From Rhizodiscina lignyota (Eukaryota): a DNA stretch of 64,000 nucleotides. This document shows, piece by piece, positions 28,471-37,227 of the stretch. The notes beneath the pieces were generated by a model, which saw only the letters and a list, made by a program, of their open reading frames with translations, was not told the DNA's origin and ran no database searches. The position numbers were made by a program, and so were the translations under genes. Each line of letters opens with the position of its first letter. Positions within the stretch are counted from its first letter, which is position 1. The DNA is taken from positions 1,736,001 through 1,800,000 of the forward strand of contig ML978123.1 of the NCBI GenBank assembly GCA_010015805.1, read 5' to 3'.

Positions 28471-29521
28471 ATGGACTCGGCTACAGGCCGGGTCCGCACC
28501 GTCCCTCGTGAGTACTCTGGTCGCCAGATGTGCGCAAATATAAGGAATCAAAGCTAATGAGGACGCGTAGCTTGGGTTGCGGACGCGGAGGAAGCGGATG
28601 AAGGAGAATTATTGCTACCCAGGCCACCACAATCCTCTATATCGCCCTCTCACCATTACCTACCATCACCGAAACATAACGCTGCGCCTGGAAGACACTT
28701 CGACTACTTACGTGAAAACGAGCCTGTCGTACAATCGGAACCCCTCGCTCATGGCGCGTCGAGATGGGCCGATTTCGCGCAGCCGTTCGCAGGAGAGGGC
28801 CAGCAGCGAAGTACCGTAGCAGACGAGCAATGGTGGGATGCGAATATGCCGGATTATGAAGACCCCTCCCACGTCGGACACGAGGAAGAGAAAGGGGAGC
28901 CTGGCTTCTGGTTATTCGTTCCAGAGAAGAGGACGAGGATGCGGAAGAAGATTAGGGTACAACCTTTGACCTCATCCTCATCATTTTCGCGATGTCTGCT
29001 AATTAGAAGTGCAGAGAACTATGATGATGAACCCGTTCATCCCTCTCACTATTCGCACCATCGTCCTAACATTTTCCTGTCTTGCATTGGGCCTCGCGGC
29101 AAACATCTGGTTGCGAGTAGGCAGGGTCACCGACTGCCAGCCTGGGACCGCAATCTACTTGGCCATCATCGTTGATGTCGTTGCAATCCTCTACACATTC
29201 TACATCATGTACGACGAATACACATCAAAGCCGCTGGGCTTGCGCTCGCCAAGAGCAAAGATGCGTCTGATCTTCCTGGATCTGTTCTTCATAGTCTTTG
29301 ACTCTGCAAACCTGAGTCTGGCGTTTCAGCATCTTACAGATCCTGGATGGGCATGCCAGAATGGCAATCCTCTGGATACCGACGAGTGTCCACAAAATGA
29401 CACTATTTGCGCGAGGCAGAAGGCACTCTCTGGAACGCTGCTGATCGCTCTGGTGGCATGGCTCGTGACCTTTTCAATCAGTATGTTCAGACTCATGGAA
29501 AGAGTTGCCGGAAAGAGATGA
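28471..29521 (+). CDS. SRF1: Regulator of phospholipase D Srf1-like membrane protein
   Basis: RVRTVP|PWV start. C-terminal TM region YDEYTSKPLGLRSPRAKMRLIFLDLFFIVFDSANLSLAF...ICARQKAL; 2 introns. Confidence 0.75.
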
Positions 29522-29868
29522 TGTATATCGGTATTGGATGATACCCAAAGACACACAGCATTCCGCCGGCGCCACACACGACGTTGCAAGTGGTCTATCC
29601 ACATTCTAACCTCTTCGACTCTCCTCGACATCTCGTGTCCATTCTGAGCAAGCTGGGTTTTAGTCTCACGTTGCTCACATCTGCTCGGCAGGCTTGGCCT
29701 AGATGATCCAGCCCCTGCAGCTGTGAACCTCTCGTGGAGGCCGGGGAAAGCGTCTTACCGCTGTGGAACGTCGTACAGCACGGCGCTCAGTCAATCATTG
29801 CGGGGATATTCTAATAGTCTCATATGTGTATCTCAGCCCTCCACCAACTCATGAGTTGGTCATTGGCA

Positions 29869-31029
29869 TCAGCCGTTACGGAACAGAAAGCTATACGCAC
29901 TGAGCGCCGGCACGCCTCCGAGATGAGCGTATAGCACCTTGGAGCCTTTTTGAAGCTCCCCTTTAAGGATCATTTCTATCATGCCATGCATAGACTTTCC
30001 CTCGTATACTGGGTCTGTCAACATGCCCTCCTGGCGAGCGCACAATCTAATAGCTTCCAATGTCCCCTCGTTCGGTATGCCGTACTCAGGTCCCCCAAAG
30101 CGTTCATCTAGGATGACGTCGTCTGCAGTGATGTCGCGATCCAGTTCTACTAATTTGGCGGTAGATTGTGCAATCTCTAATACTTGAGCGTGCGTCTGCG
30201 CAGGCTTGGCCGAAGCATCCACACCGATCACACGACGTTCGCGGCCGTCGGCGGCGAAACCAACAACCATTCCAGCCTGATCAATACATTAATATCCGAT
30301 ATACTTCTCAAAACATGTTTGATATCGTACCTGCGTGCTCCCCGTCACGGCACAGACCACGATGTAGTCGAATTTGAACCCAAGCTCCGCTTCCTGCTGT
30401 CGAACCTCTTCCGCGAATCCAACGAAGCCTAGGCCTCCTTTTGGGTGCACTGAGCATCCAGCTGGAATCGGAAACGGTTTGCCTCCCGCTTGCTCGACCT
30501 CATCTAATGCATCTTGCCAGCTCTTGCGAATGCCAATGTCAAAGCCGGCCTCATCAAGTCGCACATCAGCGCCCATGATCCTCGACAATTGAATGTTGCC
30601 AACGCGATCATAAACGGCGTCGCTGTAATTCACCCAGTCCTCTTGCACCAGAACGCATTTTAGTCCCAAGTGAGCCGCTACCGCAGCGACCTGTCTCGTC
30701 TGGTTTGACTGAATTCCGCCAATCGAGACTAAGGTGTCGTATCCTCCTTCCAATGCATCCGGGATGAGATACTCTAGCTTTCTTGTCTTGTTGCCACCGA
30801 ATGCAAGCCCACTGTTGCAGTCCTCCCTCTTGGCGTATATATCGACATTGCCGCCAAGATGCTTGGAAAGGCGTGGAAGAGGCACAATTGGCGTGGGACC
30901 AAAAGTCAATTGCTGTCGAGGGAATTTGCTGAGGTTGAGCGTATGGGCAGATCGACGGCTTAAGCATGCCAGGGACGCTCGGTGTGACATGAGCGGAAGT
31001 CTCCGCTGAAGGTGGTGCATGGCATGCAT
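29869..31029 (-). CDS. acdS: 1-aminocyclopropane-1-carboxylate (ACC) deaminase, proteobacterial type
   Basis: [22 protein letters not shown] (PLP Lys), [32 protein letters not shown] and YAHLGG (the E295/L322 equivalents diagnostic of true AcdS), C-terminus YSFLFRNG. One 54-nt intron at 30277-30330. Confidence 0.96.
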
Positions 31030-31852
31030 GGTGAACGTTATAAGCTGTGCTACGTTGTGGCGCCCAGAAAGAAATACGAGATCTTAGTTCATGAGTTTCA
31101 CAGGTTTCCCCCTCAGAGATTGAAGCTAAGGACCTAGAAGCTCTGGAGAATGAGAGGTTGTCACAGTTGGAGATTAAGTTATGTAACGGGGTAAGATGTG
31201 AAATTTCCGAAGCTCAGCATATGTATCCGATTAGCTACATGATTTGCCAGGTACGTGTCAAGTCGTCACTAAATCAATGTCGTACTGCACAACGTGTGGG
31301 GTAAGATGGTTCTGTACCTTCATAAGGTACGAGATCTTCGCGATCAAGGGATACAGTCCGAGCTGCGACTGGTTGACGTCGAAGTTCGTCGTTAAGGAGC
31401 TGCCCAGCGAGCTCCGAAAGCGGCATTGGCCCCCCTCCCCAACGTCAGTGTCTTCATGAATCCATACCTATTTATTTTCTGCGCATATCCTTTAATCCAC
31501 GAAATATCCGCATATCCTACCGTGTATGGGCCGTCGCTCAGCTTGCTCCGCTCTGTCCTCGAGCTCATCGTCATAGCGTGATGAAGGAAAGCCACAGTAG
31601 GCATAATGTCACGAACTTAATCTTCTCAGCCAATTCTCGTATTCCGTTGCACAAACTCCAAGGACTGCAAAATGAGTTGCATCTTTCCTTCCTGTAATTG
31701 TCTAGTCAGAGGAGGATGCCTCTTCAGCTCTTGGGCTCAGTCCGCCTACATATAAAGAGCACGCTTCCAATTCTGAATGCTCATCTCAAGCAGCTCGGAC
31801 TATCCTCTCGCTCCAAGTGCAAATTCAGATCGTCTGCGTTCTTCCTCTCAAT

Positions 31853-32673
31853 ATGAAGTCTCTCACTGTGGTCCTTCTTGCTGTCGCAGCTCCTTTCGTC
31901 GCAGCCCAAAACAGGCCCAATGTCAGACAAAGCTTGCCGTTCACGAGCGTTGTGACAGGCCCTTGGTTCTATTCCGCTTCTCCTTCCCAAAGCCTCTCGG
32001 GAACGAAAGTTTATGCAAGAGGCGGAAAGCTCCACTTGAGCAACAGGACCACTGCGGACGTCTCGCCCAGTTGCCGCACCTGCGTCAGAGACACGGTTAT
32101 TTTTGTAGATGGCCAGACCAGCAATGCCTATCTCGTAAGTGCATTCGTCAAGGGTGAAGAACTAGGATCTGATACATGTTCTAGGACTCCGCCAGCCCGC
32201 AGGACAATCAGCTGTACATCGATCCGATCACGTTTGTCCTTTCGTACACCACCAAAAGCAAGGGCCTGCCACGCGGCGCCATCACCAACAATTTCATTCG
32301 CGTGGGAGACAACCCGAGAGGCCAAACAGTCTCTCCAGCCAGTTGCGATGGCTGCGGTTTGAATCAAGCACCAGCGATGTCAGTAGTTCGAGTCATTCAC
32401 GCTTTCATGCCAACTAACGATACACAGGTGGGGTTGGCCGGAGCAGAGCTACATCAACAGCTTCTACGCCTGCCCAGATGACGCTCCTCGCACCACATCA
32501 TGGACTGTAAGTCCCATCCTGGGATCCCTAATGTCACCACTAACCTTGTACGGCAGCTTTATCAGAGAATCTTGTACTACTCGGCCACGGTCCCGGAAAA
32601 CAACTGCACATATGTGCAGCTTGCTGCCTTGAACTGGCGGGGCAGCAATCCTGCCGTGACTCGGTACAACTGA
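31853..32673 (+). CDS. Small secreted Cys-containing protein (loosely resembles fungal PhiA / 'IgE-binding' cell-wall proteins), 3 introns
   Basis: Signal peptide MKSLTVVLLAVAAPFVAA; TATAAA ~100 bp upstream; spliced product has QLYIDP...LSYT, FYACP, NCTYVQL. Family assignment is tentative. Confidence 0.65.
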
Positions 32674-33109
32674 TGGCGCGCTATTTTGAGAATGAGTTTC
32701 CCTTGAGGACTCGGTGCTCGTCGGCGTTTTGTTCGGCACGTGGTTTCGGCCACTGTTCTCAAGCGCACAGACTCATATCATCATGGAAATAAATTGGATG
32801 ACGGCCGTCAAGTTCCAAATTTCCGATCACACTCCTTTCTAGTATTCTATAGATTTGCGTCAGCTCCCATGAAAGAGACATAAAAAATTGAGTTGTATCA
32901 TGCCAGGTTGACTGGTTGAGGAAATTTGTCTCAAACCCCACAAAAACCATCGTGAAAGTTTCGATAATCTCAAAACAAGTATCCATCTCTCCTCGCTTCT
33001 TAATACCCATCGGAGTCAGACCATAGTGACGTGATAAATTGCTCAACCGCGCTCACGAGGGTTGATCGCACTAACGTTAGCGAAAACGCTGATGGAGGTG
33101 CATTACCAC

Positions 33110-33742: not shown

Positions 33743-35285
<1,543 letters not shown>

Positions 35286-37227
35286 GGTGAAGATGGTTGA
35301 CGCGATCCGTGAACGCAGAGAGAGATAGTGGTAGGTTGGTGTGTGGTCGTAGTGGGGTAGGTGAGCGCCGCAAGCTTGTTCGCGGCCGGTTTCTATGTGA
35401 AAAGTCGCTAGTGGAAGTTGCACGCGGCACGGAGGGGGCAAAGTCGATGCGCGTTCGAAGCGGTGAGTGCTCCGCGGCGGCGACGACGAAGTGGTCGATT
35501 GGGAGAAGGTTGAATATGAGTGTGGGGAGGCGAGGAAACAAGCGCAGCTGGCACTTTCGGCTTCGTGTGTTGTGGAGAGCAGGCCCGCCCAGGAAACAAG
35601 TGTGGCGTCGGACAGCCACACGTGGAATTGAGCACCGACGGTTGGCTGGGCGCGAAAATAAAGCTAGATTTCGAGGATCACTACGACTCTGTTGTTCCTG
35701 GCGGAAGACAACGGGAGGCACTGAAAAGGAAAAGGCACGCTGCGCTGGATGCGACATCCTCTGTCATCGACGATCCGCGATCGAAGCACACCATGGCTGA
35801 TCAGCAAACCTGTTACTGTTTGCGCGCGGAGCCATGCAAAAGCACCTTCAATTCGAAAGACAACGCCCGGGCATCAATCCTCCAACTCTCCTCTACGCAG
35901 AACCAACTGCTCTCGGGACTATTGAAAGGCCTGGCGCCATCTTGCCATGAGGCGCTCAGCATTCGCCGATACGTCATCGCTGCATTGGCCATGGACAATT
36001 CATTTCTCCCATCCACTCGTCGGGCAGTAGCAGCGACTCGTTTAACCCCCAATGCTTGCCGGGAAGGGCCAATATGGGAACTGCCAGCATACTGTCAAGA
36101 TTGACAAGCTGGACGAGCTCGCAAGAGCGCTCAATTGGCTGGGTATTGCAGCCGCAGGAAACAACTCCGTTTGCTCGTGGCCGTTGAGCACGGCGGTCAC
36201 ATGGTATGCTGTGTACCATGTTCCATAAGCGACGCTGCCAAACTGCCGAACGATTCTTATATTTACGCAGAGGCATTCCATTCACCGGCACAATACTTCG
36301 AATCACTTCACGCCGGACAGTTTGTTCACATGCTCGGATACACGCCGGACATGGGAGAGTTGCGACAGGCTACGCTCAGCGAAGAGCAAAAGCAATTTGA
36401 AACCGGGCCAGCACCTGTTTGGAGGGTCAAAGGCCATTCAAACGACTGATACCATAGTTGAGATCCAGTGTCGAAGTCGGTCGTGTGATCGTACCCATGA
36501 TAGAGAGCTCTCGCTTGCTTGGACGCGGGTAAGCTTTGCGGTGGGATGGGCTGAGGACGGGAGCAGCACGAAGATCGGGGAGAAAGGTCACGGAACTGCC
36601 GACCAAGCAGACTACTGTCGATTGTAGGTATTTCTGGCGCTGATTGCCTACGGAGCCCTTGAAGAGCTGGATGACTCGGATCCAACGCGAAGTGCGCAGC
36701 ACAAAAAGGGCGCCGGCCGCCAGCTTTAAATTCTTTCGGACCTGACGGCTAAATCGAGCTGCACCATTTCCTTTTTCGTTGTATAAGCTGGCGCGGGAAT
36801 AATCAGACAATGGCGCACTGCGAATGATTAAGCGCGCGATCTGGACTCTGTTCTTGCCGAGCATTCCAGCAGCGCGCTGCGGCTTTGTCTTGACTGAAAC
36901 AAAGCTTGTCGCCGACAAACAAGTGCAAATGCAAATGGCATGATGGCATGTAGCACACCCAACTGGGCGCGCCGCCACGGCAAGCCCGACAAGGTGCGTG
37001 GGAGATTCAAGCGCCGGCCGAATGAGGTGAGGCGAGAGGCCAAGGAGGGCGAAGGAATGGAGCGGTAGTTACGTGAGGCTGCTGAATCAAGCATTGCAAG
37101 AATCTTCTTCTCCCTGCCTCTGCAATAAAATTAAACAGCCACGGAGGGACGAAGAATGGTGGAGCGCGCTTGGAGCCGGCACGAGGAATCCCGCAAGCAG
37201 CGGGCAGATCCGCCTGAGCAGTGGTGA

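Follow-up and report, generated by a model that had tools for sequence, protein, structure and literature searches.

The window, by which we mean the whole 64,000-nucleotide stretch of Rhizodiscina lignyota DNA that was analysed, carries on its minus strand an ACC deaminase gene (acdS) of proteobacterial type that lacks the initiator Met of the bacterial enzyme and whose translation must begin within a 30-residue upstream extension. We interpret this extension as a cleavable mitochondrial presequence, a prediction to which we assign a probability of about 0.75 and which is the best reading of its composition, its cleavage-type motif and its conservation in relatives.

Structure and identity of the acdS gene

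The gene comprises two exons on the minus strand, exon 1 at 30331..31029 (233 codons; TIGR01274 E 9.8e-118) and exon 2 at 29869..30276 (135 codons plus TGA; TIGR01274 E 2.1e-64), separated by a 54-nt GT-AG intron of phase 0 (30277..30330, minus strand) that contains an in-frame stop. Translated from Met1, the spliced product has 368 residues. The NCBI model for this gene (KAF2101812.1, 355 aa), which is 100% identical to exon 1 over 94% of the exon's length, joins the two exons across the 54-nt intron. Support for the intron also comes from two Logan proteins, P0002 and P0003, which are gene calls read as protein and which leave the AcdS family sequence at the intron-site residue; from this break we infer that both are fungal.

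Exon 1 alone scores 393.1 bits, passing the TIGR01274 equivalog cut-off of 392 bits, and exon 2 adds a further 217.8 bits. The residues K51, S78, Y268, Y294, E295 and L322 (bacterial numbering) are all retained, with the catalytic Lys (residue 81 of the product; codon 30789-30787, minus strand) lying within exon 1 and the equivalents of E295 and L322 within exon 2; the main text of Nascimento 2014 (PMC4048297) gives E295/L322 as the mark that distinguishes a true ACC deaminase from D-cysteine desulfhydrase. At positions 80 and 161 the protein has Q and G, matching 85 of 85 bacterial rows; the main fungal AcdS type, as described in the same text (PMC4048297), carries His80 and Ala161. Identity with Variovorax/Acidovorax-type proteins is 83-84% over 338 residues. 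Compared with bacterial AcdS (EC 3.5.99.7; Pseudomonas sp. ACP structure 1rqx), the R. lignyota enzyme has the catalytic residues and Q80/G161 in common but differs in its intron, its host-like GC3, the absence of the core initiator Met and its 30-residue basic leader. Judged by its sequence, the gene is an intact ACC deaminase of the beta/gamma-proteobacterial type, with predicted activity.

The sole other member of the family found in the genome lies ~100 kb from the window (G000:C3:1663861-1664500 plus a downstream exon, minus strand). This paralog has one intron, no leader and Thr at both positions 295 and 322, and is therefore likely a D-cysteine desulfhydrase, like F. graminearum Acd1.

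The host genome measures 33.4 Mb and the window is located on its contig C3. A domain scan that covered 35 of the window's 66 long frames identified fungal neighbours of acdS (Mit_KHE1, Zn2Cys6 factors, cullin, G-alpha and Serinc), and no metabolic cluster around acdS was evident among the neighbours scanned. Two flanking genes without a Pfam match encode a small hydrophobic membrane protein (29021-29521, plus strand) and a multi-exon secreted-type protein (31853-32674, plus strand), and a multi-exon MAP kinase gene with a TGY motif, named as HOG1-like from ORF reading, occupies ~33850-35600 on the minus strand. The GC3 of acdS is 0.56, versus a mean of 0.82 (range, 0.61-0.95) in 72 bacterial loci. 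The fungal neighbours, the intron and the GC3 value together exclude contamination, one contig spans the stretch, and we regard acdS as a horizontally acquired gene of proteobacterial type that is integrated in a fungal chromosome. Two trees were computed, a quick one of 52 rows and a careful LG+G4 tree of 33 rows (2 rows without the anchor were dropped), and both nest the clade among beta/gamma-proteobacterial AcdS; the enclosing 28-row branch (support 99/94) does not single out an exact donor.

Translation start within the extension

The initial annotation had claimed that the bacterial start codon is lost, that the next Met lies beyond the catalytic Lys and that translation must start in the extension. 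In the spliced product, Met occurs at residues 1, 4 and 14 and then not until residue 152, and where the bacterial enzyme has its initiator Met the codon is CTC (Leu31; 30937..30939, minus strand). Upstream of Met1 there is no further in-frame ATG before a TAA (31084..31086, minus strand) that closes the frame 18 codons away. Since the core start is CTC and the next Met lies past Lys81, translation must begin inside the 30-residue extension, and the gene structure thus supports an obligatory upstream start, as had been argued. The accompanying premise, that bacterial AcdS begins M-N-L where this protein has L-N-L, holds as a rule but is not universal: among 71 scorable bacterial loci (80 loci from a protein scan, less 6 without the anchor motif and 3 too near an end), the codon matching Leu31 was ATG in 67, GTG in 2, CTC in 1 and TTC in 1. 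The core Met is likewise absent from 23 of 66 extended AcdS proteins in the database, and its loss alone is therefore no sign of retargeting. Several bacterial AcdS (P0029, P0091, P0154, P0244, L033 and L044) start 5-20 codons upstream and have Leu or Phe at the usual Met position.

An assembly error at the CTC codon was considered and rejected: P0002 and P0003 both have Ile at the matching position, and one public DNA run, whose contigs are DNA-like and contain no joints and which is not independent because it is possibly the source of the assembly, shows no difference to the assembly over 29000-32000.

Of the three candidate start codons, all on the minus strand, Met1 lies in a strong context (TTCACC ATG, 31027..31035; A at -3) and aligns with Met1 of P0003. 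Met4 (31018..31020) has G at -3 and is a possible leaky start from which a 27-residue leader would remain, while Met14 (30988..30990), the start in KAF2101812.1, has C at -3, a weak context. The NCBI start is probably annotated too late and thereby probably omits the first 13 residues.

Conservation of the leader in relatives

P0002 and P0003, whose cores are 91-92% identical to R. lignyota AcdS, form one clade with it in the 33-row tree (support 100/100). The P0002 leader is identical to that of the window at 12 of 22 aligned residues and the P0003 leader at 13 of 26; 0 of 5000 shuffles reached such values, and conservation is strongest at a Ser-Arg-Arg-x-Ala-His-Thr block. A search restricted to longer proteins (120 of 2788 matches listed) found AcdS of Aulographum hederae (P0225), which belongs, like the Dothideomycete Rhizodiscina, to the Aulographales. 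This protein has a 25-residue acid-free leader with two R-3 motifs and lacks the core Met; its leader gave no alignment signal with that of the window (2386 of 5000 shuffles as high). The initial annotation had asked whether related fungal enzymes share the extension, and the answer is mixed: the leaders of P0002 and P0003 are homologous to it and that of Aulographum is unalignable but of like composition, whereas AcdS of Aureobasidium (P0240 cluster) and Saccharata (P0254) begins at the core Met and, as annotated, has no leader.

A region search with the P0002 leader returned only P0002 itself, a metagenome scan for the intron-site pattern found 0 occurrences, and an ESM Atlas search with residues 1-45 gave no usable match. 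None of the 71 scorable bacterial loci combined a fungal-type leader with a lost Met, and a 50% representative search, in which 26 N-termini were read among the 150 matches listed, revealed no clear further leader-bearing relative.

Two sources of the leader were considered and set aside. A search for an origin in another host gene found no match to the 186-nt 5' region in the genome other than the region itself, a weak result given how quickly such DNA diverges. Inheritance from bacteria with an H-T-L-N-L leader (P0154) was rejected because these lie outside the fungal clade in both trees and have only 0-2 basic residues.

The leader as a predicted mitochondrial presequence

Matrix presequences are typically N-terminal, 15-50 residues long and net positive, and contain no acidic residues. 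The extension (Met1-Thr30; 30940..31029, minus strand), whose residues read as the initial annotation quoted them, conforms in length and charge, its 30 codons specifying 5 Arg and, as the initial annotation had noted, no Asp or Glu. By chance, ~4-5% of arbitrary stretches pass this composition test (50 of 914 ATG-started stop-free 30-codon stretches in the window and 3 of 71 stretches upstream of bacterial acdS). Five native matrix enzymes whose N-termini were read from the genome loci (PrpD, two E1-alpha subunits, Ilv5 and Ilv2) have 5-6 Arg/Lys and 0-1 acidic residues among their first 30, compared with 5 and 0 for AcdS, and a contrast set consisting of the D-cysteine-desulfhydrase-like paralog, a RidA and leaderless AcdS has 1-3 acidic residues, the first of them by residue 4-10. 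The genome's own Ilv1 N-terminus is not presequence-like by the identical criteria, so that either this test has its limits or part of the pathway lies outside the matrix.

It is unlikely, in our estimation, that the enzyme is cytosolic and merely tolerates the leader as a tail, its start having shifted to an upstream ATG of good context. Such a shift would be in keeping with the extended AcdS proteins that have no core Met, with the bacterial leader that likewise ends H-T-L-N-L, with the 3 of 71 bacterial loci at which GC-rich upstream DNA is acid-free and basic in frame, and with the Aureobasidium and Saccharata enzymes, leaderless as annotated. A tolerated tail accords poorly, however, with the distribution of charge: leaders that are acid-free and contain at least 4 Arg/Lys number 0 among 66 distinct presumed-bacterial leaders (counted at a length of at least 15 residues; 15 of the 66 are acid-free and 3 have at least 3 Arg), versus 4 of 4 in the fungal clade, where all have 4-5 Arg/Lys and no acid and where 3 of the 4 sequences are close kin. 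In addition, acidic residues stay out of the fungal leaders although about half of the residues change, and conservation peaks at a cleavage-type motif.

The accessible text of PMC8847149 describes R-2 as the motif for MPP and R-3 as that for MPP followed by Icp55. An R-3 motif (R-x-Y/A or R-x-Y/S) immediately precedes the core in all three relatives. In the window, the predicted MPP cleavage region is Arg25-Arg26-Ser27-Ala28-His29-Thr30 (30940..30957, minus strand), where Ser27 takes the place of the relatives' Tyr, and the site is therefore of R-2 type only, at Arg25/Arg26. The RRS motif previously described as cleavage-like stands as an R-2-type site, but the canonical R-3 form is present only in the relatives.

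Amphipathicity gives the presequence no support, since the maximal hydrophobic moment of the leader (0.55) is lower than in all five native controls (0.62-0.81) and does not exceed that of leaderless proteins (0.55-0.69); this result would be in keeping with a non-targeting leader. No TOM20-type motif was found in the window leader, and AlphaFold predictions for 8 sequences had a mean pLDDT of 47, too low for use. The retargeting to mitochondria proposed by the initial annotation is still a prediction, and it is the best reading despite the weak amphipathicity, strengthened by conservation of the leader in relatives.

A dual mitochondrial and cytosolic enzyme, arising from use of Met1, Met4 and Met14 or from an inefficient presequence, is very unlikely. 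The three in-frame Met codons of the leader, an out-of-frame ATG at 31025 and the choice of Met14 by NCBI would be compatible with two locations, and weak amphipathicity could leave some protein unimported. Nevertheless, every start leaves an acid-free basic leader (30, 27 or 17 residues) and none a bare enzyme; even the Met14 form, with its weak start context, keeps 17 acid-free residues, 3 Arg and the cleavage site, and P0002, P0003 and P0225 have one Met each in the first 40 residues. The earlier suggestion that three Met codons allow dual localisation is therefore not retained. Negligible probability attaches to a different address (secretion or peroxisome) or to a different N-terminus supplied by an unseen upstream exon, for which an in-frame CAG shortly upstream of Met1 could be cited, as a sequence check of AcdS found no secretory signal core, PTS2 or PTS1, the maximal 8-residue hydropathy of the leader is 0.95 versus 3.2 in the neighbouring secreted-type protein, and the relatives begin at the matching place.

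Origin of the leader

In the free trees, Aulographum is placed apart from the Rhizodiscina clade, with Saccharata. AU tests did not reject a grouping of the Rhizodiscina clade with Aulographum (p 0.475) or the placement of all ten fungal or fungal-like rows in one clade (p 0.624); the latter tree improved on the free one by 5.2 log units. Seven of 20 rare residues of the window AcdS are common to Aulographum and 0-3 to six other rows; Aulographum AcdS has 8 rare residues in common with P0241. A single gain of the leader within the Aulographales is the more parsimonious reading, and there were possibly two, because the Rhizodiscina and Aulographum leaders are unalignable and the enzymes stand apart in the free trees. 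Short insertions after the WVN motif were observed in P0226, P0227, P0233 and related AcdS of 343-344 aa and in P0241. This set of proteins groups with Aulographum and Saccharata in the 33-row tree (support 95/87), possibly as further fungal acquisitions without a leader.

We propose that a Dothideomycete ancestor received acdS of beta/gamma-proteobacterial type, that the gene acquired an intron and host-like codon usage, that an upstream ATG and a leader of 23-30 residues were added in the Aulographales lineage, and that the old initiator Met, now dispensable, drifted to Leu or Ile. Translation would start mainly at Met1, and the basic acid-free leader would direct import via TOM/TIM23. MPP would then cut after Arg25-Arg26 or Arg26-Ser27, while in the relatives its cut would be followed by removal of Tyr by Icp55, and the mature matrix enzyme would be near-bacterial in sequence.

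Possible fates of 2-oxobutanoate

A matrix AcdS would open ACC to ammonia and 2-oxobutanoate beside enzymes that consume this keto acid. 2-Oxobutanoate can enter isoleucine synthesis via AHAS or be oxidised via propionyl-CoA and the methylcitrate cycle. The genome encodes AHAS, Ilv5, threonine deaminase, two 2-oxo-acid dehydrogenase E1-alpha genes and PrpD, and the N-termini of AHAS and Ilv5 are presequence-like. With AHAS and Ilv5 as well as E1-alpha and PrpD present, both routes are open, and the keto acid may pass through AHAS to isoleucine or through the 2-oxo-acid dehydrogenases and the methylcitrate cycle, the latter amounting to carbon and nitrogen scavenging. The initial annotation had suggested that the enzyme may channel plant ACC into branched-chain amino acid metabolism; we do not uphold a preference for isoleucine, as sequence cannot choose and oxidation to propionyl-CoA is an equally good fit. 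Because R. lignyota lives as a wood saprobe, its access to plant ACC is itself uncertain.

Unlike Ilv2 and Ilv5, the Ilv1 of this genome (L004, G000:C2:2164738 region) has an acidic, Pro/Thr-rich start with 1 basic and 2 acidic residues in 30; it may be cytosolic, carry an atypical signal or have a missed upstream exon. Yeast Ilv1p is mitochondrial according to the accessible text of PMC5829821, and the location of Ilv1 in filamentous fungi is not settled by the accessible text of PMC8262921 and PMC10055536. A more far-reaching proposal, which we consider unlikely, is that the Aulographales moved a bacterial AcdS into mitochondria, possibly twice, by recruiting upstream non-coding DNA as a presequence. 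On this view, since the fungus's own threonine deaminase shows no presequence, the imported AcdS would supply 2-oxobutanoate directly to the matrix without the aid of threonine deaminase and would let ACC feed isoleucine synthesis. Elsewhere in the genome, a RidA-family match lies ~3 kb from a threonine-dehydratase-like PALP match (G000:C1:1118594-1123039), a possible pair of enamine-producing and enamine-removing enzymes.

Relation to known systems and significance

Proteobacteria-like acdS is documented in fungi including Dothideomycetes (Aureobasidium, Macrophomina, Guignardia) and yeasts in the main text of Nascimento 2014 (PMC4048297), repeated acdS transfers to fungi are attributed to Bruto 2014 as cited in PMC6746940, and intron gain after transfer is described in the accessible text of PMC11708051. 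A bacterial-type gene in Dothideomycetes, for which one origin is not rejected by the AU test above, is thus what R. lignyota AcdS has in common with other proteobacteria-like fungal AcdS. The strings 'mitochondri' and 'N-terminal' have 0 occurrences in the main text of PMC4048297, and no report of a targeting peptide on a fungal AcdS was found in the openly accessible literature searched.

A comparable case is the ethylene-forming enzyme of Penicillium digitatum, which, in the accessible text of Johansson 2014 (PMC4202696), has a predicted mitochondrial presequence missed by the annotation's later ATG. As with AcdS, an enzyme common with Pseudomonas has a fungal form with a predicted presequence and a late annotated ATG. 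The P. digitatum enzyme differs in its unrelated fold and reaction, producing ethylene from 2-oxoglutarate, and according to that text its purified N-terminus roughly fits cleavage, whereas cleavage of R. lignyota AcdS is predicted from sequence. The plant D-cysteine desulfhydrases (At1g48420 family) have the PLP fold in common with AcdS but belong to a different subfamily with a different substrate signature and are not a recent bacterial acquisition. The structure 7ysk of this family matches from its residue 6. The plant proteins possess organellar transit peptides and have been reported in mitochondria. Both the transfer of acdS to fungi and the gain of targeting peptides by transferred enzymes are known, and the predicted AcdS presequence is the element for which we found no report.

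The leader-bearing AcdS clade is small and obscure. It offers a compact natural series for the gain of an organelle address by a transferred gene, comprising bacterial donors (84% identical), leaderless fungal copies and leader-bearing fungal copies that lack the old start codon. ACC deaminase is commonly regarded as a means of lowering plant ethylene; were the enzyme located in the matrix, its product would lie beside the enzymes that consume it, which would suggest a metabolic role within the fungus.
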